A stretch of DNA of 64,000 bases, from positions 1 to 64,000 of IMG/VR virus record IMGVR_UViG_3300043444_000502; one strand, 5' to 3'. The DNA comes from a virus. Its lineage: Duplodnaviria; Heunggongvirae; Uroviricota; Caudoviricetes. The first letter of the stretch is position 1; each line of letters opens with the position of its first letter. The notes beneath the pieces were generated by a model. The model saw only the letters and a program-made list of their open reading frames with translations. It had not been told where the DNA came from and searched no databases. The position numbers and the translations under genes are program-made. This document shows, piece after piece, positions 62 to 40,961 of the stretch.

Positions 62-148
62 GGTGAATTGGCAGAGAGGCTTATTGCGTTTGTTTGCTAA
101 ACAAAAGATCCTCAACGGGGTCCATAGGTTCGAATCCTATATTCACCA
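62..148 (+). tRNA. tRNA-Ser: tRNA-Ser(GCT), class II (long variable arm)
   Basis: hand-folded: acceptor GGTGAAT/ATTCACC, anticodon stem TTTGT/ACAAA, loop TTGCTAA, T-arm ATAGGTTCGAATCCTAT. Confidence 0.7.
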
Positions 149-155
149 CCATTTT

Positions 156-227
156 GGGCTGTTAGTGATAATGGGAGCACGTCGGCTTTGCACGTCGAAG
201 GTAAGAGTTCGATTCTCTTACGGTCCA
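156..227 (+). tRNA. tRNA-Ala: tRNA-Ala(TGC)
   Basis: acceptor GGGCTGT/ACGGTCC with G3.U70, anticodon stem TCGGC/GTCGA, loop TTTGCAC, T-loop TTCGATT, CCA encoded. Confidence 0.7.
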
Positions 228-236
228 CCAAAATAT

Positions 237-307
237 ATCTCAGTAGTGTAATGGCAGCATCACAGTCTCCAAAACTGTTGGTCGGGGTTCGAGTCCCTGC
301 TGGGATG
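237..307 (+). tRNA. tRNA-Trp: tRNA-Trp(CCA)
   Basis: acceptor ATCTCAG/CTGGGAT, anticodon stem ACAGT/ACTGT, loop CTCCAAA, T-arm CGGGGTTCGAGTCCCTG. Confidence 0.7.
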
Positions 308-372
308 CCAATCAATCACGTGGGTAGCAAGAAAAGATAGGTTAAATTCTACACCTGCGTGGCTCAATTAAT

Positions 373-447
373 CTCTGTGTAATGTCAATCTGGTAGACGG
401 CTCGGTTTGGAACTGAGAGGCTGTAGGTTCGAATCCTACCATGGAGA
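373..447 (+). tRNA. tRNA-Pro: tRNA-Pro(TGG)? (A37; isotype less certain)
   Basis: acceptor CTCTGTG/CATGGAG, anticodon stem CTCGG/CTGAG, loop TTTGGAA, T-arm GTAGGTTCGAATCCTAC. Confidence 0.55.
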
Positions 448-455
448 CCAAATAT

Positions 456-527
456 GCTTCCGTAGCTCAGAGGAAGAGCACAGTCTTGATAAGGCTGGGG
501 TCGACATTTCGAAATTGTCCGGGAGTA
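456..527 (+). tRNA. tRNA-Ile: tRNA-Ile(GAT)
   Basis: acceptor GCTTCCG/CGGGAGT, D-arm GCTCAGAGGAAGAGC, anticodon stem CAGTC/GGCTG, loop TTGATAA. Confidence 0.7.
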
Positions 528-540
528 CCATTTTTAATGT

Positions 541-586
541 ATCATATAATATACATTATGAGCGTTTATGTATATTATATGATACA
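541..586. repeat. AT-rich perfect inverted repeat (ATCATATAATATACAT ... ATGTATATTATATGAT) between two tRNAs
   Basis: read directly from the sequence. Confidence 0.6.
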
Positions 587-590
587 TTAT

Positions 591-665
591 GGTGCGGTGG
601 CCGAGTGGTCCAAGGCAACGGATTGCAAATCCGTAAAATCGTCAGTTCAAATCTGACTCGCACCT
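591..665 (+). tRNA. tRNA-Cys: tRNA-Cys(GCA)
   Basis: acceptor GGTGCGG/TCGCACC, anticodon stem ACGGA/TCCGT, loop TTGCAAA, T-arm GTCAGTTCAAATCTGAC. Confidence 0.65.
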
Positions 666-674
666 CCAAATAAT

Positions 675-747
675 GCGGCTATAGTCTAATGGATAAGGCA
701 ACGGTCTTCTACACCGTCAGATGTGGGTTCGACTCCTGCTAGCCGCG
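675..747 (+). tRNA. tRNA-Arg: tRNA-Arg(TCT)
   Basis: acceptor GCGGCTA/TAGCCGC, anticodon stem ACGGT/ACCGT, loop CTTCTAC, T-loop TTCGACT. Confidence 0.7.
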
Positions 748-770
748 CCAAATTATTTTTAGAAAAACTA

Positions 771-799
771 TGTACAAACAACTTTAGTTGTGGTATAAT
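771..799 (+). promoter_or_regulatory. sigma70-type early promoter: TGTACA-N17-(TGG)TATAAT
   Basis: -35 771-776, extended -10 791-799; upstream of tRNA-Leu. Confidence 0.55.
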
Positions 800-814
800 A
801 GATGTAAGTTAAAT

Positions 815-894
815 GCGAGTGTGGTGAAATAGGTAAACACAGGAGACTTAAAATCTCCCGCTTCGGCTTGACGGTTCGATTCCGTCCACTCGCA
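815..894 (+). tRNA. tRNA-Leu: tRNA-Leu(TAA), class II
   Basis: acceptor GCGAGTG/CACTCGC, anticodon stem GGAGA/TCTCC, loop CTTAAAA, variable arm CGCTTCGGCTTG, T-loop TTCGATT. Confidence 0.7.
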
Positions 895-903
895 CCAATT
901 AAT

Positions 904-976
904 GCACGGTTCGTCTATCGGTTTAGGACACTAGCCTTTCACGTTAGTAAGACGGGTTCGATTCCCGTACCGTGTA
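904..976 (+). tRNA. tRNA-Glu: tRNA-Glu(TTC)
   Basis: acceptor GCACGGT/ACCGTGT, anticodon stem CTAGC/GTTAG, loop CTTTCAC, T-arm ACGGGTTCGATTCCCGT. Confidence 0.7.
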
Positions 977-1099
977 CCATTAATTAGGCTCTTTGTAAGC
1001 TCAGAGACCTGATCATGTGTTATGTAACTGTAGCAATAAACCGTAATCGATCGTAAAGCGTGTTGAACTACAGCAAATAGTGCAGAGAGTCTAATTAAT

Positions 1100-1174
1100 G
1101 GTTCGTTAGTATAGTTGGCCTAATATGCTTGCCTGTCACGCAAGAGATCACGGGTTCGAATCCCGTACGGACCG
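1100..1174 (+). tRNA. tRNA-Asp: tRNA-Asp(GTC)
   Basis: acceptor GGTTCGT/ACGGACC, anticodon stem CTTGC/GCAAG, loop CTGTCAC, T-arm ACGGGTTCGAATCCCGT. Confidence 0.7.
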
Positions 1175-1184
1175 CCAAATTAAT

Positions 1185-1252
1185 CGCGGAGAGTCAGGGT
1201 AGAGGAAAGTCTCATAAGCTTCTCCTAGAAGGTTCGAATCCTTCCTCCGCAA
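1185..1252 (+). tRNA. tRNA-fMet: tRNA-Met(CAT), initiator-like (C1.A72 mismatch), short D-arm
   Basis: acceptor CGCGGAG/CTCCGCA with unpaired C1-A72, anticodon loop CTCATAA, T-arm GAAGGTTCGAATCCTTC, ends AACCA. Confidence 0.5.
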
Positions 1253-1263
1253 CCAAGTTTTAT

Positions 1264-1337
1264 TGGCCTATAGCACAGTTGGTAGTTGCGCTTGACTGTT
1301 AATCAAGATGTCCGTGGTTCGAGCCCACGTAGGCCAG
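1264..1337 (+). tRNA. tRNA-Asn: tRNA-Asn(GTT)
   Basis: acceptor TGGCCTA/TAGGCCA, anticodon stem CTTGA/TCAAG, loop CTGTTAA, T-loop TTCGAGC. Confidence 0.7.
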
Positions 1338-1412
1338 CCAATTATGTCATGACTAATCTCAGGAACTCCCGTCCACCTGAGTTAAAATAACAAAAAAACG
1401 GGGCCAAATTTT

Positions 1413-1494
1413 GGAGATGTAGGAAAACTGGTAACCCCAGCTGACTGTAAATCAGCCGCCCCTGGCACTGTGTGTTCGACTCACACCGTCTCCA
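1413..1494 (+). tRNA. tRNA-Tyr: tRNA-Tyr(GTA), long variable arm
   Basis: acceptor GGAGATG/CGTCTCC, anticodon stem GCTGA/TCAGC, loop CTGTAAA, T-arm GTGTGTTCGACTCACAC. Confidence 0.7.
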
Positions 1495-1806
1495 CCAAGT
1501 TTTGTAAGTGTTAGCAAGAGAAAGACATCATATTCGAGTAGATGGCCATCGAAAGATTTGATAAAGCAATGAGGGGCGCAATACCCTAGCAAAAAATAGA
1601 AGCATTGGTTAAGTATCCCAAGTGACGTACCGAGTCCCAGCGCGCCTTGATAAATGGGTGAATGATGCATATAACGATGGTTGCATAACTTACAAATTTA
1701 ACAGACCCCGCATTGACCGGTGTGCGTAATCACCGGTCACCATATTTAAGCATACAGTGTGTCGGCTTGCTGATAAACTTTAAGTAGAGATTGTATGCTT
1801 AAATAT

Positions 1807-1878
1807 GGTAACGTAGCAAAGAGGCCTTGCACTTTCTTCATACGGAAGCTAACGCTGGTTCGAATCCAGCCGTTACCA
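1807..1878 (+). tRNA. tRNA-Met: tRNA-Met or Ile2 (CAT), elongator type
   Basis: acceptor GGTAACG/CGTTACC, D-stem GCAA/TTGC, anticodon stem CTTTC/GGAAG, loop TTCATAC, T-arm GCTGGTTCGAATCCAGC. Confidence 0.65.
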
Positions 1879-1897
1879 CCAAGATATATAATTATTT

Positions 1898-1968
1898 GCC
1901 CTATTAGTTTAATGGTAAAACATCGGTTTTGTAATCCGAGGCTTGCAGTTCGATTCTGTGATGGGGCA
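1898..1968 (+). tRNA. tRNA-Thr: tRNA-Thr(TGT)
   Basis: acceptor GCCCTAT/ATGGGGC, D-stem GTTT/AAAC, anticodon loop TTTGTAA (4-5 bp stem), T-loop TTCGATT. Confidence 0.6.
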
Positions 1969-1977
1969 CCAACTTTT

Positions 1978-2051
<74 letters not shown>

Positions 2052-2066
2052 CCAAAATGAGGATAT

Positions 2067-2708
2067 ATGGATATTCCATTATTTGAACAATCGGTTAGAC
2101 ATATTTTATTTCCAACAAAAATTTGGGAATATCAATTAGCTAATACATCTGAACTCGATGTGTATGCACAAAAATTTATTGATATTCGCGAAAAAGAAGG
2201 TGGAGGTTTATATTCTGGATTAGGTAATTGGGTAAGTCCAGATGATTTACACTTGAGAACAGATTGGCAACCTATTAAAGATATTTTTTTAAGTAGAGTT
2301 GCTGCAGCAGTTGATGACTTAGGTATTTTGCATGAAGATCTATACGTAAATTGCATGTGGGGAAATTCTCATATAGGATCAAGTCAACATCAAGTACATC
2401 ATCATCCTAATAGTATGTTTTCTGGAGTATTTTATCTAAGTGCTCCTGAAGGTTGTGGAAATTTATTTTTTAAAGATCCACGCGGACCTTTGGCAAATAC
2501 ATATGTGTTTGACTATAAGGAAGGTTATAATAATTTTGAAATATATAGATTTAAACCGACTAAAGGAAAAATTATTATTTTCCCAAGTTGGTTAGAACAC
2601 GGCACAGAACCAGGAGATTTTGAAGGAGAAAGAATCTCTTTAAGTTTTAACGTAATGGTAAAAACTAAAATTTCTAAACGATCTATTAAATGGAATTATT
2701 ATGACTGA
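2067..2708 (+). CDS. 2OG-Fe(II) oxygenase superfamily protein (TIGR02466-like)
   Basis: motifs HHHPNS ... FPSWLEHG; paralog of 7569 and 8201 ORFs. Confidence 0.6.
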   Translation: MDIPLFEQSVRHILFPTKIWEYQLANTSELDVYAQKFIDIREKEGGGLYSGLGNWVSPDDLHLRTDWQPIKDIFLSRVAAAVDDLGILHEDLYVNCMWGNSHIGSSQHQVHHHPNSMFSGVFYLSAPEGCGNLFFKDPRGPLANTYVFDYKEGYNNFEIYRFKPTKGKIIIFPSWLEHGTEPGDFEGERISLSFNVMVKTKISKRSIKWNYYD

Positions 2709-2865
2709 AGATAAAAAGTGCACATGTGGTCGTTCATTAACTAGCAAATGTGTTGGTTGGCACGATTTAACTGAAGAAGAGTGGAAACAAAAATTGCTTC
2801 AAGCTGTTCAAGCTTTAACTGGACGTGCTAAACAACGCGAAATAGAGAGAAAGAGAAAAAAATGA
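2701..2865 (+). CDS. small hypothetical protein (54 aa, Cys-x-Cys, basic C-terminus)
   Basis: ATG/stop overlaps neighbours (ATGA junction at 2862); not in the >=60 aa track. Confidence 0.3.
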   Translation: MTEDKKCTCGRSLTSKCVGWHDLTEEEWKQKLLQAVQALTGRAKQREIERKRKK

Positions 2866-3131
2866 GTGAAGGCGGAAAAGGTAGTAAACCAAGACCATTT
2901 AGCATTTCTCAAGATGAGTATGATGCTCGATGGGATGCAATCTTTCAACGTGATATTCCTAAAGAAGAGCGAGTTAGTACTAAGATCGAAGATGGTTTCG
3001 AACTAGAAAGCTTAGATCCAGATCAACGTTCATGGTATTATGACGAATATGGTGTTAAACGTAAAAAAGAAAAAGAAGAAGTAAAAATCAAAGCGACGAT
3101 CCTTGATGTAAAGCTTAAAGGATCTATCTAA
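2862..3131 (+). CDS. hypothetical protein
   Basis: ORF track; compact packing. Confidence 0.45.
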   Translation: MSEGGKGSKPRPFSISQDEYDARWDAIFQRDIPKEERVSTKIEDGFELESLDPDQRSWYYDEYGVKRKKEKEEVKIKATILDVKLKGSI

Positions 3132-3136
3132 AACAT

Positions 3137-3209
<73 letters not shown>

Positions 3210-3220
3210 CCAACAATATT

Positions 3221-3300
3221 GCGGATGTGGCGTAATTGGTAGCCGCAACGGTCTTAGAAGCCGTCGCTTCGGCGTGTGAGTTCGAGTCTCACCATCCGCA
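3221..3300 (+). tRNA. tRNA-Leu: tRNA-Leu(TAG), class II
   Basis: acceptor GCGGATG/CATCCGC, anticodon stem ACGGT/GCCGT, loop CTTAGAA, variable arm CGCTTCGGCG, T-arm GTGAGTTCGAGTCTCAC. Confidence 0.7.
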
Positions 3301-3396
3301 CCATTAAAAATTTCCCGATAAAGCTAATCTAGTGAAAGCGCTGGTCTGAAAAGCCAGAGAGTTTGGTGCGTAACCAAATGTCGGGACCACAAATAT

Positions 3397-3469
3397 ACCC
3401 CGTTGGTGAAATGGATGATCATACAACGCTACGAACGTTGAGGTAGAGGTTCGATTCCTTTACGGGGTA
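3397..3469 (+). tRNA. tRNA-Arg: tRNA-Arg(ACG)
   Basis: acceptor ACCCCGT/ACGGGGT, anticodon stem CAACG/CGTTG, loop CTACGAA, T-arm AGAGGTTCGATTCCTTT. Confidence 0.65.
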
Positions 3470-3478
3470 CCAGTTAAT

Positions 3479-3570
3479 GCTCCTGTAGTTTAATGGTAAA
3501 ACTCCAAGCTTATACCTTGGCGATGTCTCTAGATGAGGGAATGATGTGGGTTCGAATCCCGCCGGGAGTA
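3479..3570 (+). tRNA. atypical class II tRNA, 92 nt, anticodon reads TAT (identity unclear: Ile-UAU-like anticodon on a Leu/Ser-like long-arm scaffold)
   Basis: acceptor GCTCCTG/CGGGAGT, D-stem GTTT/AAAC, anticodon stem CCAAG/CTTGG, loop CTTATAC, 25-nt variable region, T-arm GTGGGTTCGAATCCCGC, CCA encoded. Confidence 0.5.
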
Positions 3571-3574
3571 CCAA

Positions 3575-3620
3575 AGTTCTATATGTACAACATGTTAAAA
3601 ATATGGTATAATATACCTAT
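3575..3620 (+). repeat. 47-nt element AGTTCTATATGTACA(A/G)CATGT(T)AAAAATATGGTATAATATA(C)CCTAT, copy 1
   Basis: near-identical copy at 10625-10670 with three differences. Confidence 0.7.
3584..3612 (+). promoter_or_regulatory. early promoter TGTACA-N17-TGGTATAAT
   Basis: part of the 47-nt element duplicated at 10625-10670. Confidence 0.6.
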
Positions 3621-3638
3621 AATTTGAAAGGATATAAT

Positions 3639-4223
3639 ATGCAAGTGAATCTTCGTAAAGCAAATGCAATTCAAGCCGAGATCAAAAAGGCGATTAGTGG
3701 CGTGAAAACAGAAGTAAATGTATCTGTTAGTGAGTTCACTGCAGATATTTCAAAAGCTGTTGCTGATGCTGCAACAGAATTCCTAAATGCTGTGAAGCGT
3801 AAGGAACAACTTAATACAGCATTGTTCGAAATTCGAGCAGCTGTAGGACGAGCAAATGCTCAAGCTGGTGTAGGTGATCTACTTGCAGAAGTAGAACGCA
3901 TTGATGGTAAGATGAATATCATCGCAGCAGTAGCAAATGCTCAAGTAGCAAAGTCTGTAGATGAACTTAAGGCTCGCGTAGAGAAGTTGAAATCTAATAG
4001 CACTGGCGAGAATTCTCGTCTAGCGTTATATGGTGATCGTTACAGTAGTGTAGAAACAAGCGTAGTTGCACAATCTGTGATCGATCAATTCAAAGCTGAA
4101 GTTAAAACACTGAAGCGTGCCAAACAAGATCTTCAAGATAAACTCTTGAATGTGAATGTTGGAACAACCATCACTCTGTCTGCGGACACAGTGAGAGTGT
4201 TAAAAGAGGAAGGTATCCTCTAA
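3639..4223 (+). CDS. hypothetical coiled-coil protein (track start 3624; RBS AAAGGA favours ATG 3639)
   Basis: early promoter at 3584-3612; Ala/Lys/Glu-rich heptad-like sequence. Confidence 0.5.
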   Translation: MQVNLRKANAIQAEIKKAISGVKTEVNVSVSEFTADISKAVADAATEFLNAVKRKEQLNTALFEIRAAVGRANAQAGVGDLLAEVERIDGKMNIIAAVANAQVAKSVDELKARVEKLKSNSTGENSRLALYGDRYSSVETSVVAQSVIDQFKAEVKTLKRAKQDLQDKLLNVNVGTTITLSADTVRVLKEEGIL

Positions 4224-4502
4224 TTTTTCGAGAGTAAGAAGGATAGGAAGTTATTGCATTTAAGGTAAGTTGCAACATTATCGAATTTGTGCTCGATAAT
4301 GCAGGATAAGTCTTGAAAACTTATTCCGACTAATCTCCGGCCAACTCATAGTTAGTTGCTCCCATCATACTGGACGTTAAGTCATTGCTTATTGATAATG
4401 GGATCTTAATACTTTGTGGCCTGCTTATTGTAATTTGCAAATTGCAGGTTGCTGAGCGACTTATCGCATAATGGAATTGATCTCTTACTCTCACCTTCTA
4501 AT

Positions 4503-4573
4503 GCGGGATTAGTTTAGTGGTAAAACGACATCCTTCCAAGTTGTAGTTGCGAGTTCGATTCTCGCATCCCGCT
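4503..4573 (+). tRNA. tRNA-Gly: tRNA-Gly(TCC)
   Basis: acceptor GCGGGAT/ATCCCGC, D-stem GTTT/AAAC, anticodon loop CTTCCAA, T-arm GCGAGTTCGATTCTCGC. Confidence 0.7.
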
Positions 4574-4577
4574 CCAA

Positions 4578-4814
4578 TTGATTATGTACAAAATATATTT
4601 TACAAACGAATACGGTGAAGATAGATCTTATAAAGAAGACTCTTTGTCAGAAGCATTAAAAATTGCTGAAGGACTTAGACGTAATCAAAGAAATAGCTTT
4701 GTTGTAATGACATCAGAGAATCCAAATTGTGTAGGTAAACAGGGTGTTGATAGTGTTGTTGAAGGTAAACTACCTGATGGCAACGATTATGAATGGAAGA
4801 AAAGACGAAAATGA
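4578..4814 (+). CDS. hypothetical protein
   Basis: ORF directly after tRNA-Gly. Confidence 0.4.
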   Translation: MIMYKIYFTNEYGEDRSYKEDSLSEALKIAEGLRRNQRNSFVVMTSENPNCVGKQGVDSVVEGKLPDGNDYEWKKRRK

Positions 4815-4852
4815 AACGAAAACGTAAATCAGAAAAAACCCGAAAGATGATG

Positions 4853-4924
4853 GGGGGTATAACTTAACGGCTAAAGTACCTGGCTTTTAACCAGATAATC
4901 AGAGTTCGATTCTCTGTGCCCCTA
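4853..4924 (+). tRNA. tRNA-Lys: tRNA-Lys(TTT)
   Basis: acceptor GGGGGTA/TGCCCCT, D-stem ACTT/AAGT, anticodon loop CTTTTAA, T-arm CAGAGTTCGATTCTCTG. Confidence 0.65.
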
Positions 4925-5047
4925 CCAAATCATTATAAGAGAGTAGATTGACGAGAACATCATACCACTGCAATGGAACTTGTTCAAGTCGGTTTGCAGA
5001 TCGAGCGGATCTATAAATTACCGTTCAGTCTATTCCCTTATAACGAT

Positions 5048-5119
5048 GGTGTTAGTAGTGTAGTGGCTGCACACTTGTCTGTGAAACAAGTAGAGAGGGT
5101 TCGATTCCCCCTTTCACCC
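5048..5119 (+). tRNA. tRNA-His: tRNA-His(GTG) with extra 5' G(-1)
   Basis: anticodon stem CTTGT/ACAAG, loop CTGTGAA, T-loop TTCGATT; acceptor has two T.T mismatches, so ends uncertain. Confidence 0.55.
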
Positions 5120-5129
5120 CAAAGAATTT

Positions 5130-5202
5130 GCCTGGTTGCGTAGAGAGGTGATACGTCTCCCTTACAAGGAGAGCGATGTTGGTTCGAGTCCAACACCAGG
5201 TA
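5130..5202 (+). tRNA. tRNA-Val: tRNA-Val(TAC)
   Basis: acceptor GCCTGGT/ACCAGGT, anticodon stem TCTCC/GGAGA, loop CTTACAA, T-arm GTTGGTTCGAGTCCAAC. Confidence 0.7.
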
Positions 5203-5225
5203 CCAGATTTGATATATAGTAGTAT

Positions 5226-5297
5226 GCTTCTATAACATAATGGCTAATGTGGACGTCTCTAAAACGTTTTATCTGAGTTCAATTCTCAGTAGAAGCA
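5226..5297 (+). tRNA. tRNA-Sup(CTA): suppressor-type tRNA, anticodon CTA (reads UAG amber), class I
   Basis: acceptor GCTTCTA/TAGAAGC, D-stem ACAT/ATGT, anticodon stem GACGT/ACGTT, loop CTCTAAA, T-arm CTGAGTTCAATTCTCAG, CCA encoded. Confidence 0.6.
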
Positions 5298-5411
5298 CCA
5301 ATTTTTATAAGGAGAAAATCTATGAAAGCGACGCATCTCTAGATTCAAAAGCCTCCGTGATGGTTCTTGTTGTTTAAAGGAAATCATTTTAAATTTAACA
5401 AGGAAAATCAC

Positions 5412-5783
5412 ATGTCTATTGAACTAAAAATTAAAGCAAAACATCTCGCACTTGAGCCAAACATTATTCGTCACGAAGAACGTAAACTCAAGGGGCAAAT
5501 TAAATACACAAACGGAACAGATCAATCGTTGATCTGGAAACTAAACAGTTTACAAAATCATCGTGTGTGTATTGTAAGGAATGAAGCAAGAGCTACTCAT
5601 CTTGCAAGAACGTTCATTGAAGGTAAGCCATATAGTTACGCTGAAAAGAAACGCAATGATGAGGGTTTATTTCAGTTGTATATTATCCCTCGTATCTTAG
5701 CTATGGTGCAACGATACGGTAAGGGTGAACAAAGGAGAATTACGGTTGACGTAATCAAAGAATGGTCTAAACTAGGAGTATAA
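5412..5783 (+). CDS. hypothetical protein (track start 5367; RBS AAGGA before ATG 5412)
   Basis: ORF track. Confidence 0.45.
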   Translation: MSIELKIKAKHLALEPNIIRHEERKLKGQIKYTNGTDQSLIWKLNSLQNHRVCIVRNEARATHLARTFIEGKPYSYAEKKRNDEGLFQLYIIPRILAMVQRYGKGEQRRITVDVIKEWSKLGV

Positions 5784-5784
5784 A

Positions 5785-6342
5785 ATGAATGTGCTGGCAC
5801 TTGACGTAGGTGGAATTCCACGTCAATGGTTAAATTTCGAACAAGCTATATTGTATCATGCTAAAGGCCAAGTTGCTTGGACACTTGGTGATACAGTTGC
5901 TAAGTTCAGAGGAGGTCTACAAAACGATGGTACAGAATCGTATTTAGAATCTCCTTCGATCATTGCTATTAAAGGCGGTGAGGGATTTAATCCTGCAAAA
6001 TTTGGTAAAGTTGTTTTAAGTAACAAAACACTATTTGCAAGAGATAGACATGTCTGCGCGTACTGTGGTAATCATTTTACTTCTAATCATCTTTCCCGTG
6101 ATCATATTGTTCCTGTGTCACGTGGCGGTGAGAATGTTTGGATGAATGTTGTAACTGCGTGTAAGAAATGTAACTCTGTGAAGAGTGACAAAACACTTAA
6201 AGAAGCTCGTATAGAATTGTTATACATTCCATACGAACCAAATCACTACGAACACATGATCCTTATGAATCGTAACATACTTGCAGATCAGATGGAATAT
6301 CTGTTAAGCGGTGTGCCAAAACATTCACGGGTTTTGTCTTAA
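5785..6342 (+). CDS. HNH endonuclease
   Basis: CAYCGN..H..RDHIVPVSRGG...ACKKCN zinc-HNH motif. Confidence 0.8.
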   Translation: MNVLALDVGGIPRQWLNFEQAILYHAKGQVAWTLGDTVAKFRGGLQNDGTESYLESPSIIAIKGGEGFNPAKFGKVVLSNKTLFARDRHVCAYCGNHFTSNHLSRDHIVPVSRGGENVWMNVVTACKKCNSVKSDKTLKEARIELLYIPYEPNHYEHMILMNRNILADQMEYLLSGVPKHSRVLS

Positions 6343-6350
6343 ATCAAATT

Positions 6351-6377
6351 TGGGGATCTCAGATCCCCATTTTTTAT
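6351..6377 (+). terminator. rho-independent terminator
   Basis: GGGGATCT/AGATCCCC hairpin + T-run after the HNH gene. Confidence 0.6.
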
Positions 6378-6390
6378 GATATATAATGAT

Positions 6391-6987
6391 ATGATTGAAA
6401 AGCCTATTATAATTGATGACGTCATCGACGTTTCATATCAAAATGTTCTTATAGAAGAATTCATACAAAAAGCTCCATGGTTTTTTGTAAACGATATTAC
6501 GTTTGCAAATGGTGCAAATCATAGAAAAACTCCAGCCTTTTCCCATTTGTTTACTGAATTTGGAAAATACCATGATGATCAATTTTTTCATATGGTAAGT
6601 CCAATTGCTTATGAAGCATGTAAACATATCAATTATAAAATCGATTTAGTTTATAAAGCTAGATCGTTTTTGCAACTTCCATTATCAGAACAATTTAAAT
6701 CGAAAGATATAGACGCACTACATGTGGATCAACCATTTCCACATCTCGTAGTGCTTTATTATTTGGTTGATTCAGATGGTGATACAATATTGGTTGATCA
6801 TAAACGTGAAGATGATGTAGATTATAATTTAGAAGCATACGATTTTAAAGAATTACTTCGAATTACACCAAAAAAAGGTCGTTGTGTTATCTTTGATGGT
6901 GATTATTATCATACCGCTGAACAACCAGTATATAATACAAGAGCTATTATAAATTTTAATTTACTTGGAAAATTTAAAGATGTTTAA
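6391..6987 (+). CDS. 2OG-Fe(II) oxygenase family protein, sub-family A paralog 1 (track start 6376)
   Basis: LHVDQP..H-x-D ... DGDYYHTAEQP; N-termini of the paralogs align from MIEKPIIIDDVI. Confidence 0.65.
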   Translation: MIEKPIIIDDVIDVSYQNVLIEEFIQKAPWFFVNDITFANGANHRKTPAFSHLFTEFGKYHDDQFFHMVSPIAYEACKHINYKIDLVYKARSFLQLPLSEQFKSKDIDALHVDQPFPHLVVLYYLVDSDGDTILVDHKREDDVDYNLEAYDFKELLRITPKKGRCVIFDGDYYHTAEQPVYNTRAIINFNLLGKFKDV

Positions 6988-7591
6988 AGAACCTATTGTC
7001 ATAGATAATGTCATTTCAAAACGATATCAAACTCATGTGCGTGATAGTTTATTAAGTGCAAATATCGAATGGTTTTATCAACCAGATATTACATATCCAA
7101 TGCATAAAATGCCTGAAGGTTTTATTCCAAAACCGGGTTTATCACATTTGTATTACGATAATGTTAGAAGCCAAAATCCGCTTAGTCCATGGTTTCATAT
7201 GATTTGGCCTATCGCATTAGAAGCATGTGATAAAATGAATATTGTATTCGATGAATTAATGCGCGCTCGTTCATTTTTACATTTCCCTACAGATCCAAAT
7301 AGTAAACTACTTAATCATCCACACATTGATTATGAAATTCCACATTTAGTTTTATTATATTATGTTAATGATAGCGATGGTCCAACGGTTTTATATAATG
7401 AAACACTCGTTGATATTAAAGAAAAGGATTTGTCACTTGATAAACTTACTGTGAAAATGGAAGTAGAACCACGTCAAGGGCGAATGGTTATTTTTGATGG
7501 ACACACATATCATAGTAGCACACAACCTACAAAATCATCTCGATGTATTATTAATTATAATTTATTAGGTGCAAAATATGCAACTAACTAA
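6980..7591 (+). CDS. 2OG-Fe(II) oxygenase family protein, sub-family A paralog 2 (track start 6965)
   Basis: PHIDYEIPH ... FDGHTYHSS; paralog of the 6391 ORF. Confidence 0.65.
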   Translation: MFKEPIVIDNVISKRYQTHVRDSLLSANIEWFYQPDITYPMHKMPEGFIPKPGLSHLYYDNVRSQNPLSPWFHMIWPIALEACDKMNIVFDELMRARSFLHFPTDPNSKLLNHPHIDYEIPHLVLLYYVNDSDGPTVLYNETLVDIKEKDLSLDKLTVKMEVEPRQGRMVIFDGHTYHSSTQPTKSSRCIINYNLLGAKYATN

Positions 7592-8213
7592 TGCGTTTGA
7601 AGTTCCGATTTTGTATCATAAACAAAAATTACAATCACATGATACAATAAAACAATGGATTTTAAACATGTATTCGAAATCTCCTGTAATGGATGGAAAC
7701 TTTTATGGGACAGGATTTACAACTCATTTCTATAATGACTTTACTAGCGAATTACATGTATTAGATGAATTTTTTCCATTGCGCAATCACATTTTGCAAA
7801 AAGCATCAGAATATGCGATGGAACGAATTGTTAAACTAAAATCGATGGGATGCGAAGTACAATCAGATCCTCGTTTAAAGATTAAAAAAATGTGGTTTAA
7901 TGTTAATCCGAAACATGGTTATCAAGGTCGACATCATCATGGTGGATTTGTATTAGCTGGAACATATTATGTAAATGTACCACAATATTCCGGAGCAATT
8001 GAATTCACAGATCCAAATCCATTTTCATATTATAAAAACCAAAGTATGGGTCATCGTTGGTTATTGAATAATTATTATAGTGTAACACCAGAAGAAGGTG
8101 ATTTATTAATTTGGCCAGGTTATTTAGATCATGAAGTCAAAACTAATAAATCGAATGACTTAAGAATGACTGTATCATTTTGTTTAGATTGGGAGGAAGA
8201 ATGCCCGCAGTAA
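7569..8213 (+). CDS. 2OG-Fe(II) oxygenase superfamily protein (TIGR02466-like), sub-family B
   Basis: HHHGGF ... WPGYLDHEV; paralog of the 2067 and 8201 ORFs. Confidence 0.6.
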   Translation: MQNMQLTNAFEVPILYHKQKLQSHDTIKQWILNMYSKSPVMDGNFYGTGFTTHFYNDFTSELHVLDEFFPLRNHILQKASEYAMERIVKLKSMGCEVQSDPRLKIKKMWFNVNPKHGYQGRHHHGGFVLAGTYYVNVPQYSGAIEFTDPNPFSYYKNQSMGHRWLLNNYYSVTPEEGDLLIWPGYLDHEVKTNKSNDLRMTVSFCLDWEEECPQ

Positions 8214-8836
8214 TTTATCCTTTTGGACCAGGTTTATATAAAGCTCGTTTATCTGATGACGTATTACATATGCTACAAGAAGTAGTAGAACGTGTACGTA
8301 AAGATGATTCTTTGAATAGAAGTTATAAAGCTGGTCAATTTGTATATGGTAAAAATCCAATGATGGATTTTACACCTGAAGAATTTAAATTATTTGATTT
8401 AGAAATCAAACGACATATGCTATCATACTTTTTAGAAATGCGGAATACTATTCGCATGGATAAAGATATGTCTAAAAAATGTTTAGATGCTGTTAATACA
8501 ATGCGACCGCACAATGATCATGAAAATGAAGCTAGCATTTGGGCGAATATCCAACATGCAGGTGATATGCATCCAATTCATAATCATCCAGGTGATATTT
8601 CATTTGTAACATATATTAAAGTTCCAGAATTAACTGAAGAAGATAAATTCAGAAGCGGAGGTATGGTTGCATGGACATATGGAGAATATATGGAATTTTC
8701 TAATGATATGTTTGCGCATCAACCTGAGGTTGGAGAAATTTTTATTTTTCCACCAAAATGTAGACACTTTGTTTGGCCATTTAGTAATAAAGATGGAGAA
8801 CGCATTTCTGTAGCAGGTAATTATGAATTTGCCTAA
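8201..8836 (+). CDS. 2OG-Fe(II) oxygenase superfamily protein (TIGR02466-like), sub-family B (track start 8180)
   Basis: HNHPGD ... FPPKCRHFVWP ... GERISVAGNYEF. Confidence 0.6.
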   Translation: MPAVIYPFGPGLYKARLSDDVLHMLQEVVERVRKDDSLNRSYKAGQFVYGKNPMMDFTPEEFKLFDLEIKRHMLSYFLEMRNTIRMDKDMSKKCLDAVNTMRPHNDHENEASIWANIQHAGDMHPIHNHPGDISFVTYIKVPELTEEDKFRSGGMVAWTYGEYMEFSNDMFAHQPEVGEIFIFPPKCRHFVWPFSNKDGERISVAGNYEFA

Positions 8837-9440
8837 TGACGTAATAGTATTAGATGATTTCTTACCTAAAGCTTTTGTTGAACGATATGCTCAACGAGTT
8901 TTAGATAAAGATTTCAATTGGTTTTATTTAGAAAATATTACTAGAAGCAATATTCCTAGAACATATAAATCAATTGATAATATTGAATGGCATGATACAG
9001 ATGGTTTATCACATTCTGTATTTCACGATAAAGAATGGTATGATCCATATTGGTCATTACAACATTCTTTGTTTATATGCGAAATGTTTGCAGAAAAAAC
9101 GGGTTGGAATTTTGATAGACTATATCGAATGAAAATTAATCAATTGATGATTACACCAAAATATGAAATTAATTTTCCTCATGTGGACGCAGAACATCCT
9201 CATGATGTTTTATTATATTACATTAATGATAGCGATGGAGAAACTATTCTTTATGATAAAATGTGGGAACCATCACACAATAATACAGAAGTAGAATTGA
9301 AAGAAATTTTACGAATTCCCCCAAAAGCAGGAAGATGCATTAAATTTAATGGTTTGCGTTATCATAGTAGTTCAACACCTGTTAAAACAAAAAGACGTTT
9401 AGCACTTAATATGAATTTAGGATACACACATGGAATATAA
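8823..9440 (+). CDS. 2OG-Fe(II) oxygenase family protein, sub-family A paralog 3
   Basis: PHVDAEHPHDVLLYYINDSDG ... NGLRYHSS. Confidence 0.65.
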   Translation: MNLPNDVIVLDDFLPKAFVERYAQRVLDKDFNWFYLENITRSNIPRTYKSIDNIEWHDTDGLSHSVFHDKEWYDPYWSLQHSLFICEMFAEKTGWNFDRLYRMKINQLMITPKYEINFPHVDAEHPHDVLLYYINDSDGETILYDKMWEPSHNNTEVELKEILRIPPKAGRCIKFNGLRYHSSSTPVKTKRRLALNMNLGYTHGI

Positions 9441-10080
9441 CGATATTATTGTAAGAGATGGATTAGTTCCGAAATATTTGCAACGAAGATTTTATGATGC
9501 TGTAACAGATCGCAATCTCCATTGGATGGATTTTGATCATGAAGTATCTTCAGGCGATTATTGGAAAGGTCGTAATTATTTGTGTGATGGTTTAAATATT
9601 AAACCATCACCGTGTTTAGTTAAATTAGCATTTACTGGTGGAGCACGAGGACCAAATGATCCAGAAATGATTCATGAACCAGAATGTTTTTACTATATGG
9701 GATTGTTCATTCTTGATCTTTTAGCTGAGAACGAAGGTTGGAATGTGAAACGCATTCTTCGCATGAAGATCAACAAACAAGTTCCTATGCATGGTTTTAC
9801 AGAAAACGATTGTAATGGAATTCATACAGATACAGAAATTCCACATAAAACACTAGTGTATTATATCAATGATAGCGATGGTGATACAATTATTATGAAT
9901 GAAAAATTTCAACCATCGCATAATGTACCAGGATGCGATATTAATACTACTATTGCAACACGTGTAACACCTATGCAAGGTAGAATTGCATGTTTTGACG
10001 GATTACGTTATCATGCTCCTAGTAATCCAATTAATTCTAAATCTCGATACCTTTTAAACATTAACTTTGTGACTGAATAA
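9430..10080 (+). CDS. 2OG-Fe(II) oxygenase family protein, sub-family A paralog 4
   Basis: IHTDTEIPH ... YYINDSDGDT ... DGLRYHAPS. Confidence 0.65.
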   Translation: MEYNDIIVRDGLVPKYLQRRFYDAVTDRNLHWMDFDHEVSSGDYWKGRNYLCDGLNIKPSPCLVKLAFTGGARGPNDPEMIHEPECFYYMGLFILDLLAENEGWNVKRILRMKINKQVPMHGFTENDCNGIHTDTEIPHKTLVYYINDSDGDTIIMNEKFQPSHNVPGCDINTTIATRVTPMQGRIACFDGLRYHAPSNPINSKSRYLLNINFVTE

Positions 10081-15430: not shown

Positions 15431-16033
15431 ATGCAAAGCGATATTCGCGATTTTATTGGTGTATTTGATGACGCTCTTCCAGAAACTGTATGTGAAGAAT
15501 TAATAAAACATTATCATTATGTTGATCAATGGGCTTTAACTGATAAACGCACATTTGATCGCCAAGAAGCTGAACACATTGGAAAAACGTATAAAGATGA
15601 TAAAACATACTTTATGCATGAAGAACATTTAGATGAAATAAAGTTAATCAATTCTTGGCTAGCTGGTGTAATGAATAAAGCAATTAGATCTTGCATTGAA
15701 GAATACAATAAAAAATATGATGTATTATTAAATAGAGGTTATGGTTTATGGGGACATCGTCTTCAAAAAACTGGAATCGGTGCAGGTTATCACGTATGGC
15801 ATTACGAAAATAGCGGTAAAGAAGATAGTGATAGAATTTTAGCTATATTAGTATATCTTAATGACGTTGAAGAAGGCGGAGAAACAGAATTCCTTTATTA
15901 TCCTCGCCGCGTTAAACCTAAAAAAGGTAGAATCGTTATTTTCCCAGTAGGATATACTCATACACATCGTGGCAATCCTCCAATTTCTAATGAAAAATAT
16001 TTAGTTGCCACATGGACAAACAACGTAAACTGA
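15431..16033 (+). CDS. prolyl 4-hydroxylase-like 2OG-Fe(II) oxygenase
   Basis: GYHVWHYEN ... VEEGGETEF ... YTHTHRG. Confidence 0.65.
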   Translation: MQSDIRDFIGVFDDALPETVCEELIKHYHYVDQWALTDKRTFDRQEAEHIGKTYKDDKTYFMHEEHLDEIKLINSWLAGVMNKAIRSCIEEYNKKYDVLLNRGYGLWGHRLQKTGIGAGYHVWHYENSGKEDSDRILAILVYLNDVEEGGETEFLYYPRRVKPKKGRIVIFPVGYTHTHRGNPPISNEKYLVATWTNNVN

Positions 16034-16156
16034 TTGATGGTTCATTAGTAAACGAATTAGACGAAGCAAAAACTTTAACTGTTTACACTAAATGTCCAGA
16101 GAAATGGATGTTAGTCGATATGGAAACTGGAGAAGTTTACATCGGTTATTCTTCTG

Positions 16157-16390
16157 ATGGTAAAAACGATTGGAAGAAAGATGTGTAATTGTTTATTCTG
16201 GGCTTTATGGATGAAATTCAGGTGGGGTGGACAAATCAAATGGCATAAAAGTCGTACATGGTTTGGGTTTCATAACACATGGATAAATCCTAAAGGTGTA
16301 GAATGGGAATACACATTAGAGAAAGTTAAACGACATTCAATATGGTATATTCCAATATGCTATAAAGGTGTTGTAAAGAAATTGTTGTAA
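16157..16390 (+). CDS. hypothetical Trp/Lys-rich small protein (doubtful)
   Basis: ORF track only; abuts the tmRNA. Confidence 0.25.
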   Translation: MVKTIGRKMCNCLFWALWMKFRWGGQIKWHKSRTWFGFHNTWINPKGVEWEYTLEKVKRHSIWYIPICYKGVVKKLL

Positions 16391-16391
16391 T

Positions 16392-16445
16392 CCCTTCAAA
16401 GCGAAGGACTTCTGGACGCGGGTTCGACTCCCGCCTCCTCCACCA
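16392..16445 (+). ncRNA. ssrA: tmRNA (ssrA) acceptor piece of a circularly permuted two-piece tmRNA: T-arm + 3' acceptor strand + CCA
   Basis: GGACGCGGGTTCGACTCCCGCCTCCTCCACCA matches the conserved tmRNA 3' end; CTCCTCC pairs with GGGGGAG at 16534-16540 including G3.U70. Confidence 0.8.
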
Positions 16446-16533
16446 AAAGTATACTTAAATCTGTAAAAAGATCGGGATTGGTAAGCCGGAACCTCTACTT
16501 AGTAAGTTCATTTCACCTTAGTATACTTCTGAT

Positions 16534-16723
16534 GGGGGAGCCATGGTTTCGACAGGGGTAGATAGTAGAGACGGCAACACGGTAGGCGATGACCGTAAAT
16601 CAAGCAAATAACGTAAATGCAAACGATAGCGCATACGCTTTAGCAGCCTAAGAAACTAGCTAAGCTGAGGTAACTATACCTTATAATCAAAAATAGTAAA
16701 GGCTCCTTCGGGAGCCTTTTTTT
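16534..16723 (+). ncRNA. ssrA: tmRNA (ssrA) coding piece: 5' acceptor strand GGGGGAGCCATGGTTTCGACAGGGG, tag ORF 16604-16651 encoding ANNVNANDSAYALAA-stop, 3' terminator hairpin
   Basis: conserved tmRNA 5' motif (GGGG..GGnTTCGACnGGG); tag ends YALAA + TAA; located 3' of the acceptor piece, i.e. a permuted gene order. Confidence 0.8.
16701..16723 (+). terminator. rho-independent terminator (3' end of tmRNA)
   Basis: GGCTCC-TTCG-GGAGCC + T7. Confidence 0.7.
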
Positions 16724-16726
16724 ACG

Positions 16727-16734
16727 TATAAATA
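16727..16734 (+). promoter_or_regulatory. T4-type late promoter TATAAATA
   Basis: upstream of the tail-fibre gene. Confidence 0.55.
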
Positions 16735-16770
16735 GATTAGGAATACAACCATTCATGGACGATCTATTAT

Positions 16771-40238: not shown

Positions 40239-40961
40239 CTAGCCGAAAAAACTTTGTAATCCCTCAACTGTTAAGTGATTATCTGTACCACATTTTTCGC
40301 ACTTAAAGTCTACTTCTTTAGATAGACGTGGAATTCCATCTAAAAATTTCTGAATCTTCATAAATTGATTAGAATTTAATGATTCAACAAATTGATCAAT
40401 GTCTTTCTTTTCCAAATTAGATGCTTCATATATCTTTTCAGCATCGAAAATTGCTTCAATGCATGATGTGATAATCGCAAATGTATTTTCTACTTCAGTT
40501 TTTCCATTATTAACAATTGAATTTACTGCAGCAGTTGTTGGATATCGCATGATAACACCAACATTATCTGTGATCATAATTTTAGGATCTACAGTTTTAG
40601 ATGTATCGATATCAATTTCATCTAAATTGATTGCAACATCGTTTGGTGCATCACATGATTTACACTTAAACCCAACGTGAGAAGCTTCACCTACTGATTT
40701 TGCTCTTAATTTTAAAAATAAGAACTCTAATTCAGCTGTTGGAAGTTTTCTAACATCAACTTTTTCAAATGTGCAAGCTTTAATAATATCTTGTACAGCT
40801 TTCAAAATGATTTTTTCATCTTGACTTTCTAATGCAAGCATTAGTGTTTTTTCTTCTTTAACAAGATATGGACGATATTCTACAACCTGTTTACTAACTG
40901 GTAATGTCACCTCATATTTCGGTGTGTTTAATACAATAGGTAAAGACATAATATACTCCAA
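40239..40961 (-). CDS. hypothetical baseplate-module protein with two CxxC zinc-ribbon motifs
   Basis: CKSCDAP and CEKCGTD. Confidence 0.45.
   Translation of the reverse strand: MEYIMSLPIVLNTPKYEVTLPVSKQVVEYRPYLVKEEKTLMLALESQDEKIILKAVQDIIKACTFEKVDVRKLPTAELEFLFLKLRAKSVGEASHVGFKCKSCDAPNDVAINLDEIDIDTSKTVDPKIMITDNVGVIMRYPTTAAVNSIVNNGKTEVENTFAIITSCIEAIFDAEKIYEASNLEKKDIDQFVESLNSNQFMKIQKFLDGIPRLSKEVDFKCEKCGTDNHLTVEGLQSFFG

Follow-up and report, generated by a model that had tools for sequence, protein, structure and literature searches.

We analysed a 64,000-nucleotide (nt) stretch of viral DNA, positions 1 to 64,000 of the IMG/VR record IMGVR_UViG_3300043444_000502 (hereafter the window), around a transfer RNA (tRNA) gene whose anticodon, CUA, reads the amber stop codon UAG. 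The source is an uncultured T4-like myovirus with a G+C content of ~35%. On the plus strand, the tRNA(CUA) gene is followed by a short leader open reading frame (ORF) with an in-frame TAG, by a hairpin over the Shine–Dalgarno (SD) sequence of the next gene, and by that gene itself, ORF123, which encodes a basic protein of 123 amino acids. Comparison across loci indicates that the tRNA, the leader mini-ORF and the SD-sequestering hairpin with ORF123 make up one three-part cassette, which recurs in over 100 non-identical loci.

Searching IMG/VR with ORF123 (5412–5783) returned 24 loci at 42–76% identity. Leaders were compared across these 24 loci, 80 metagenome loci and one 156-kb contig from a marine metagenome-assembled genome.

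A tRNA with a CUA anticodon closes the tRNA array

The tRNA array occupies 62–5300 and extends upstream past the start of the window, in which 26 tRNAs were counted. In the closest relative, L007, the array opens with a Gln tRNA and a Ser(tga) tRNA before the counterpart of the first tRNA in the window. The tRNA(CUA) gene (5226–5300, plus strand) is the last of the array in this phage, as the first-pass annotation had stated. Its 75 nt comprise a 72-nt body and an encoded CCA, with the anticodon CTA at 5259–5261, and its assignment rests on ARAGORN, Rfam RF00005 and covariation.

ARAGORN predicts a cloverleaf with a 7-bp acceptor stem starting at G1–C72, a 4-bp D stem, G18G19, the anticodon loop C-U-CUA-A-A, the T loop TTCAATT, A73 and CCA. 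RF00005 matches over the full model at 63.5 bits against a gathering score of 29, the fifth best score among the 26 tRNAs of the window, so the gene is not a pseudogene; it has the features of a canonical elongator tRNA in this model. ARAGORN and the Infernal alignment agree in placing CUA, the anticodon of an amber suppressor, at positions 34–36. The first-pass call of a class-I tRNA with anticodon CUA is thus borne out by ARAGORN, Rfam and the conserved loop, and neither outcome that it had named as a refutation, a pseudogene or a shifted loop, was realised. The anticodon stem that it had described as perfect, GACGU/ACGUU, contains four Watson–Crick pairs and one G–U pair.

Across 20 divergent homologues, 95.8% of the cloverleaf is paired, compared with 71% in shuffles and 36–44% in slid controls. 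Compensatory changes occur in 15 of its 20 pairs, and the observed score was reached by none of 500 shuffles. In the 24 IMG/VR loci, the homologous tRNAs diverge strongly in all four stems while retaining the decoding loop. Among 74 unique homologues, the loop reads Y-U-CUA-A-A in 73, and G1–C72 and CCA are present in all 74. Pairs 2–71 and 3–70 vary freely in the same set, in which the decoding end is fixed, and the discriminator base is mostly A (67 of 74), with G in 6 and C in 1.

That the amino-acid identity cannot be read from the sequence, as had been noted at the outset, agrees with these drifting acceptor-stem determinants and with the absence of an isoacceptor cluster. In a comparison with ~450 array tRNAs, no isoacceptor family stood out; the best matches (0.55–0.69 identity) were scattered over Phe, Leu, Cys, Thr, Arg and Lys. 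The suppressor tRNAs of cultured phages that carry the cassette are visibly different sequence types. We infer from this pattern that it is the decoding of the stop codon that matters, and not the amino acid inserted.

ARAGORN labels the gene tRNA-Pyl, which reflects the CUA anticodon only. A pyrrolysine tRNA has a single nucleotide separating its acceptor and D stems, a small D loop that lacks G18G19 and no T-Psi-C consensus; these hallmarks are missing here, where the tRNA has 2 nt (TA) at positions 8–9, an 8-nt D loop with GG and the T loop TTCAATT. A general scan of the window proteins gave no match to pylS or pylBCD, with no search aimed at these families. Megablast of 4400–6400 against GenBank phages found no match, blastn with the tRNA(CUA) gene gave a single partial match, and IMG/VR contained no exact match to a 27-mer of the tRNA.

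The tRNA is followed by a coding-type leader with an in-frame TAG

The conserved target begins 22 nt downstream of the tRNA and is a mini-ORF with an in-frame TAG. An SD sequence, AAGGAG (5309–5314, plus strand), lies between tRNA and leader, 8 nt from the 3′ end of the former and 7 nt from the ATG of the latter. The mini-ORF itself (5322–5360, plus strand) reads ATG AAA GCG ACG CAT CTC TAG ATT CAA AAG CCT CCG TGA, which corresponds to MKATHL-[TAG]-IQKPP-stop, with the TAG at 5340–5342 and the Pro-Pro codons at 5352–5357.

The leaders share one design: a start codon, 1–10 variable codons, an in-frame TAG, 2–6 codons and Pro-Pro. Of 85 unique upstream sequences, 83 show this pattern, as do 28 of 33 in a more distant sample. 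An in-frame ATG preceded by an SD-like motif was found in 77 of 84 unique relatives. When the distance from the nearest upstream TAG to the Pro-Pro codons was measured blind to frame, it was a multiple of three in 78 of 84, falling into classes of 6, 9, 12, 15 and 18 nt. At both Pro positions, CCA, CCT, CCG and CCC are all used and the first two bases are invariant; Arg codons after the TAG are CGA, CGT, CGC or AGA in relatives. A purine directly follows the TAG in 73 of 76. In one relative (L103, 1190–1480), the leader is expanded to ~95 codons, with the TAG as codon 4 and ~90 codons open up to an APP-stop. Judged by these comparisons, the codons after the leader TAG are evolving as coding sequence.

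The composite leader pattern occurs once in the 64 kb, counting both strands (0.02 expected), and once per related locus, always at the cassette. No Rfam family spans the leader or the hairpin.

The C-terminal ends of the leaders fall into two classes. In class 1, which includes the window and most relatives, [R/K/H]-Pro-Pro lies directly at the stop (for example, IRPP, IQKPP, TYKPP, NMHPP and VFRPP). The basic residue of class 1 is two positions before the P-site Pro, like the Arg in RAPP, and a release factor takes the place of the A-site Pro-tRNA. Termination after a C-terminal Pro-Pro is slow in E. coli. In class 2, R-x-Pro-Pro occurs without an immediate stop, as RGPP, RAPP, RSPP, RDPP or RPPP. 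RAPP and RGPP are strong arrest cores that resist elongation factor P and depend little on what precedes them in the peptide; RSPP and RDPP permit arrest (PMC12992588). RAPP and RGPP also form the cores of ApdA, ApdP and SecM-like arrest peptides (PMC12992588 and PMC10951233). The cassette has the layout of an arrest leader of the SecM/MifM/ApdA type, with a small same-strand ORF upstream of the gene; its R-x-P-P or RAGP-like end is represented by the class-2 motifs in some relatives and by [R/K/H]-P-P-stop in the window and most relatives. A further element of such arrest leaders, an N-terminal export or insertion signal, is absent from these peptides of 7–16 residues with 1–10 variable residues before the TAG.

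A covarying hairpin covers the SD sequence of ORF123

Between the leader and ORF123 lies a predicted hairpin on the plus strand. Its 5′ (anti-SD) arm spans 5357–5379 and overlaps the last base of the Pro codons and the leader stop; its 3′ arm spans 5387–5411, holds the ORF123 SD sequence AAGGA (5400–5404) and ends 1 nt before the ORF123 ATG. The minimum-free-energy fold has 21 bp at −17.2 kcal/mol (z = −3.4). In this fold, TTCTT (5364–5368) pairs with the AAGGA SD sequence and the leader stop codon pairs with 5408–5410.

Relatives fold alike, and 82 of the 83 sequences have the ORF123 SD sequence within the helix. Measured from the end of the predicted A-site codon, the start of the 5′ arm falls within −3 to +4 nt in 82 of 83 relatives, for both leader classes, placing the helix where an arrested ribosome would sit. 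The anti-SD strand begins inside or right after the A-site codon. A ribosome positioned at the Pro-Pro-stop would have to open the arm that covers the SD sequence.

MAFFT with RNAalifold returned no structure for the leader region, as the variability of the hairpin loops defeats alignment. The helix was assessed instead by register-anchored folding, by shuffles and by an arm-swap test, the last being an alignment-free measure of covariation in which arms are exchanged between divergent loci. Compared with shuffles, the duplex scores z = −2.3 to −5.3 in most loci. A sequence's own arms pair at a mean of −13.4 kcal/mol, compared with −7.2 kcal/mol for swapped arms, and the own arms were better in 83 of 83 sequences. 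On non-redundant representatives, this held in 28 of 28 (p = 7e-9).

No terminator-like site was found between 5300 and 5412, and no T run follows the hairpin over the SD sequence. An intrinsic terminator between leader and gene, as used in trp/tna-type attenuation, is thus missing; Rho dependence was outside the scope of the analysis. The first terminator-like site is further downstream, at 6351–6369, and belongs to a strong intrinsic terminator (6351–6377, plus strand) with an 8-bp GC-rich stem and a T run, which ends a unit of tRNA, leader, ORF123 and an HNH gene.

ORF123 (5412–5783, plus strand) has a calculated isoelectric point of 10.0. The AlphaFold2 model (mean predicted local distance difference test score of 89) is all-helical, with a long antiparallel helical hairpin and a small helical domain. 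Searches of Pfam, PHROG, NCBIfam and PDB sequences gave no match, and structure comparison returned generic fold matches only. The family has 441 close homologues and, at 50% identity, at least 2,348 clusters; its members are all small stand-alone proteins. Our guess is that ORF123 has a role related to translation or tRNA and is required, or tolerated, only while suppression is active.

The cassette recurs in metagenomic loci and cultured phages

The tRNA(CUA) gene adjoins an ORF123 homologue in all 24 IMG/VR loci, and in 23 of them it lies ~110–190 nt upstream on the same strand. Around it, the tRNA complement of these loci ranges from 2 to 35 genes in differing order. In the metagenome sample, the tRNA is present in 70–72 of the 73 loci with enough flanking sequence, and among distant-branch loci it lies within 1.5 kb in 23 of 33. 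Both the tRNA and the leader are absent from one locus (L102), in which the SD sequence of ORF123 is exposed. In one clade (L072, L073, L075 and L079), a small Cys-rich, rubredoxin-like ORF is inserted between the tRNA(CUA) and the leader.

Cultured phages carry the cassette as well. In BUCT-ZZ01, which infects S. elongatus PCC 7942 (Synechococcus), the tRNA(CUA) is followed by MGGDAS-TAG-INLKPP-stop. In DSS3_MAL1, whose host we take from its name to be Ruegeria pomeroyi DSS-3, it is followed by MKS-TAG-IRPPP-stop. The Stenotrophomonas maltophilia siphoviruses DLP_5, DLP_3 and Summit have the leader MK-TAG-VYKPP-stop, then the ORF and then the tRNA(CUA), 6–7 nt after the ORF. The Summit genome paper states the purpose of the suppressor tRNA as unknown and reports no tRNA synthetase.

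In one 64-kb viral contig (L153), tRNA and leader have changed together. The upstream tRNA has the anticodon UCA, scores 48.5 bits in Rfam and keeps G1–C72, A73 and CCA. Its leader reads ATG TTG TGA GTA TAC GCG CCA CCT TAA (ML-TGA-VYAPP-stop) and precedes an anti-SD helix of the usual kind. All the closest relatives of L153 have CUA and TAG, and the switch requires three coordinated substitutions. Together with the coding-type conservation after the TAG, this co-switch lends indirect support to aminoacylation of the tRNA(CUA) and to its decoding of UAG.

ARAGORN also calls a tRNA(UCA) in three loci with a CUA cassette (L063, 2053–2125; L065, 2396–2469; L076, 2544–2621). We rejected these as further opal cassettes: the calls look marginal, with odd acceptor ends, and lack a TGA-type leader downstream.

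TAG remains a stop codon in the protein genes

The first-pass annotation had linked the suppressor tRNA to stop-codon reassignment or manipulation of host termination, and had noted that TAG appeared to be avoided as a stop. The window contains gp5-, gp6-, gp7- and gp53-like baseplate genes, tail-fibre genes and many 2-oxoglutarate (2OG)-Fe(II) oxygenases. By gp6, its closest cultured relatives, at only ~40% identity, are the Methylophilales phage Melnitz and pelagimyophages; Melnitz has four tRNA genes and no suppressor.

ORFs cover 56,143 nt of the 64 kb under the standard code and 56,675 nt with TAG read as sense, a gain of only ~0.5 kb. The late structural genes (gp5, gp6, gp7 and gp53 homologues and the tail fibre) are uninterrupted under code 11. 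A screen against homologue residues found no credible in-frame TAG in protein genes of the window and 24 related 20-kb loci (~400 kb); the apparent cases were antisense artefacts, with CTA-Leu on the coding strand, or overlaps with tRNA genes. The initial TAG matches aligned with Gln, Lys or Glu. The signal for TAG as Gln came from Leu codons read in antisense in a plus-strand TROVE/vWA gene, where the underlying Leu codon is CTA, as against CTG, TTG, CTT or CTC in homologues.

In relatives, this Ro60-like (TROVE and vWA) gene often follows the cassette at a distance of a few hundred bases (L004, 10977–12443; L010, 1316–2749; also L063 and L065). Its codon usage yields long stop-free antisense ORFs with Gln-aligned TAGs, which makes it a trap for recoding screens.

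TAG ends 2 of 67 window ORFs of at least 80 amino acids. The sole convincing case is the gp53-like gene (40239–40961, minus strand), to which read-through would append six residues. In relatives with the same tRNA, TAG ends 29 of 294 ORFs (10%), compared with 12.5–15.7% in Melnitz (Fisher p about 0.05). Among ORFs of at least 100 amino acids, TAG ends 25 of 304. Backup stops after TAG-terminated genes are not closer than those after other genes (p = 0.24). The avoidance of TAG thus holds weakly: TAG is rare as a stop in the window but serves as an ordinary terminator in ~10% of relatives' ORFs. In-frame TAGs in conserved genes and the loss of TAG as a terminator, the two marks of a code-15-like genome, are both absent from the sequence analysed. 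The recoding interpretation is not supported, and nothing in the present analysis speaks for manipulation of host termination.

A proposed translational switch gated by amber suppression

We propose that tRNA(CUA), leader and ORF123 probably form a translational switch gated by amber suppression, in which read-through turns ORF123 on. Ribosomes would initiate on the leader and meet the UAG. Where release factor 1 (RF1) wins, termination would take place 15–21 nt upstream of the helix, leaving the hairpin closed and the ORF123 ribosome-binding site hidden. Where tRNA(CUA) decodes the UAG, Ile-Gln-Lys-Pro-Pro would be made and the ribosome would arrive at the stop. There, [R/K/H]-Pro-Pro-stop, or R-x-Pro-Pro in some relatives, is predicted to hold the ribosome. 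The held ribosome would cover the anti-SD strand, releasing the SD sequence of ORF123 for translation. Since read-through would gate the arrest, the output of ORF123 would report the balance between suppressor tRNA activity and RF1.

Comparative evidence shows the tRNA, a coding-type leader, a covarying hairpin, a fixed geometry, a near-obligate linkage and one co-switch. Read-through, arrest, unmasking of the SD sequence in vivo and activation as the direction of control are deductions from these sequence patterns. Several observations weigh against the proposal. The class-1 motif [R/K/H]-P-P-stop has not itself been published as an arrest sequence, the opal co-switch is known from one locus only, and the simple duplex test gives a weak hairpin at L007, L010 and L024. 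In addition, eight loci (L042, L114, L123, L126, L136, L167, L185 and L188) have the leader and no suppressor tRNA in the sequence examined, so the linkage between tRNA and leader has exceptions, unless those genomes encode the tRNA elsewhere.

More tentatively, the tRNA may be a dedicated trans-acting activator whose sole selected target is the leader stop. The cassette would then be a self-contained, horizontally mobile switch across unrelated phages that can be re-keyed to a different stop codon, as in the UCA/TGA pair of L153, with ORF123 as a new factor in termination, ribosome rescue or tRNA metabolism. The carriers proposed for such a mobile switch are T4-like myoviruses, Delepquintavirus siphoviruses and jumbo phages, and their proposed hosts are cyanobacteria and alpha-, beta- and gammaproteobacteria.

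Two other readings keep the suppression and give it a different role. The tRNA could be a general suppressor that reads UAG on many host or phage messages, for protein extension, disruption of host termination or counter-defence, with the leader and ORF123 as an accessory feedback sensor that holds suppression at a given level or deals with its side effects. The window also encodes a two-piece transfer-messenger RNA (tmRNA), and suppressor tRNAs in E. coli have been linked to an increase in non-stop ribosomes and in SsrA tagging. The window has a somewhat lower share of TAG stops than Melnitz, and monitoring-substrate circuits such as SecM–SecA regulate the activity that they sense (PMC7897499). 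We nevertheless consider a general suppressor unlikely. No conserved read-through extension or in-frame TAG was present in any gene examined, and the Summit authors' search of 12 amber-terminated genes in their genome found no suppressor target. The drifting acceptor identity elements and the switching discriminator fit poorly if the inserted amino acid matters, and the opal switch in L153 altered the leader together with the tRNA. Somewhat less probable still is a physiological sensor, in which the tRNA is constitutive and the switch reads host RF1 activity or the charging of the tRNA's amino acid. The same architecture would sense the ratio of charged suppressor to RF1, whichever of them varies. 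The release factor 2 (RF2) gene, in which an in-frame UGA senses release factor, is a precedent for a stop codon in this role. Relatives of this phage also carry a glutamine riboswitch on the tmRNA gene (PMC9004378). Sensing of one amino acid is hard to reconcile with an identity that is not conserved, given A73, G73 or C73, free 2–71 and 3–70 pairs and differing tRNAs in cultured phages.

The remaining explanations do without the switch. TAG might be read as an amino acid in genes outside the window, as in crAss-like and other gut phages. In gut phages, TAG recoding of late genes has been associated with suppressor tRNAs (bioRxiv 10.1101/2021.08.26.457843, PMC9523058 and PMC10607447), and the window covers only 64 kb of a genome that we estimate at roughly 150–170 kb. 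The intact late structural genes, the lack of coding capacity gained from TAG as sense, the artefactual nature of each in-frame TAG in ~400 kb of related loci, the termination of about 8–10% of relatives' genes by TAG and the lack of a target in the complete Summit genome make this very improbable; for the sequence in hand, reassignment is already largely refuted. Hardly credible, and the least probable of all, is a leader that ends at the TAG, with the conserved sequence after it acting as an untranslated RNA element or protein-binding element and the adjacency of the tRNA a by-product of the array. ORF123 sits in tRNA arrays, so some tRNA is always near, and CCUCC-like Pro codons could serve as an anti-SD sequence; in DSS3_MAL1 they do pair with GGAG. 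The neighbour is, however, specifically tRNA(CUA) in more than 100 loci, even where a locus has only 2–5 tRNAs, and the commonest Pro pair, CCA CCG, is not complementary to the SD sequence. Codon periodicity, synonymous-only variation and the in-frame spacing also oppose an untranslated element, as does the joint change to UCA and TGA in L153.

Many non-recoding phages carry suppressor tRNAs of unexplained purpose, for which a leader that gates the next gene offers a concrete and testable answer. If the proposed switch is real, this would be the first natural tRNA that acts as a specific trigger of gene expression through a programmed stop codon. It would be a natural counterpart of synthetic amber-gated leader switches, add a new type of input to riboregulation by arrest peptides and provide synthetic biology with a compact part that is portable and apparently re-keyable. 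The very large and uncharacterised ORF123 family is flagged as probably linked to translation. For annotators, the locus is a warning that a phage suppressor tRNA alone does not prove an alternative genetic code.

Neighbouring genes and further features of the window

An HNH endonuclease gene (5785–6342, plus strand; Pfam HNH_5/HNH) starts 1 nt after the ORF123 stop. It is missing at this position in most relatives, in which tRNA genes come after ORF123 instead, and is probably a mobile insertion outside the conserved cassette. Directly downstream of the cassette, at least six tandem ORFs of ~200–218 amino acids each occupy 6376–10080 (plus strand). Several match 2OG-Fe(II) oxygenase families, and two similar ORFs lie at 2067–2708 and 15431–16033 (plus strand). 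A baseplate or tail-module protein of 2,163 amino acids (53121–59612, plus strand) matches only PHROGs of unknown function (phrog_358, bit score 1738).

The two-piece (permuted) tmRNA lies at 16333–16742 (plus strand), encodes the tag ANDSAYALAA and scores 158.7 bits with Rfam beta_tmRNA and 154.6 bits with tmRNA_permuted. L007 also has one (16049–16438, tag ANDSQFALAA); co-occurrence with the suppressor was seen in these two loci only. As read-through makes non-stop ribosomes, the tmRNA may be functionally tied to the suppressor.

Some tRNAs of this array and of related ones are unusual. A tRNA-Phe(GAA) at 3314–3389 (plus strand; Rfam, 47.2 bits) was missed by ARAGORN at default settings and called at a lower threshold; it has C1–G72, a 3-bp D stem and the non-canonical T loop TGCGTAA instead of TTCRANN. 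The tRNA-Ile(UAU) at 3479–3573 (plus strand) is unusually long, at 92–96 nt in the window and several relatives (L001, 6713–6807; L002, 8419–8513; L007, 8028–8122; L023, 3729–3824), which implies a conserved insertion of ~20 nt, either a long extra arm or a small intron. Some tRNA-Leu genes measure only 77–78 nt and lack the long variable arm expected in bacteria; they occur in L001 (6818–6894, 7021–7097 and 8533–8609) and likewise in many other related loci. An ORF within the array (3639–4223, 194 amino acids) has no relatives in IMG/VR.

Comparison with known systems

Like crAss-like, Lak and other code-15 gut phages, this is a large phage of a standard-code host with a CUA tRNA. Here, however, protein genes have no in-frame TAG and TAG is still a terminator. 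The only conserved TAG that would be read through lies in a 12-codon leader, and the inserted amino acid appears to be unconstrained.

Closer parallels exist among small leaders and stop-codon sensors. PepNL of E. coli (PMC11890864) is also a tiny leader peptide in which arrest is coupled to read-through of a stop by a tRNA. Its arrest occurs at UGA and is relieved by read-through with Trp-tRNA, whereas read-through of UAG would lead to the arrest here, the opposite logic, and the tRNA here is a dedicated, co-encoded suppressor. In the eukaryotic AMD1 C-tail (PMC13025110), stop read-through is likewise followed by arrest at the next in-frame stop, but the read-through is spontaneous and represses its own messenger RNA. 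In prfB, which encodes RF2, an in-frame stop codon senses termination efficiency by frameshifting and not by a suppressor tRNA. Neither AMD1 nor prfB has a dedicated tRNA or a downstream gene controlled through an SD hairpin.

Literature searches found no natural system of this design. The nearest engineered one places a UAG in a tna- or trp-type leader, so that the target is on only if a suppressor tRNA passes the UAG (reviewed in PMC6412442, section 6). That switch is transcriptional, through Rho or attenuation, and relies on an unnatural amino acid supplied by an orthogonal tRNA/synthetase pair. The phage cassette is natural and would be translational, through SD sequestration, with charging by the host.

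The arrest part most resembles SecM–secA, MifM–yidC2 and ApdA/ApdP, with a small same-strand upstream ORF that has a C-terminal core of the Arg-x-Pro-Pro type and a hairpin that hides the SD sequence of the next gene; some relatives here have exactly RAPP, RGPP, RSPP or RDPP. Most phage leaders end instead in [R/K/H]-Pro-Pro at the stop, and arrest on them is predicted from sequence. The phage leaders have only 7–16 residues and no signal or transmembrane segment, so release of the arrest by pulling force is impossible. What most sets them apart is an in-frame stop upstream of the arrest core and a co-encoded suppressor tRNA, so that reaching the arrest site would itself be the regulated step.

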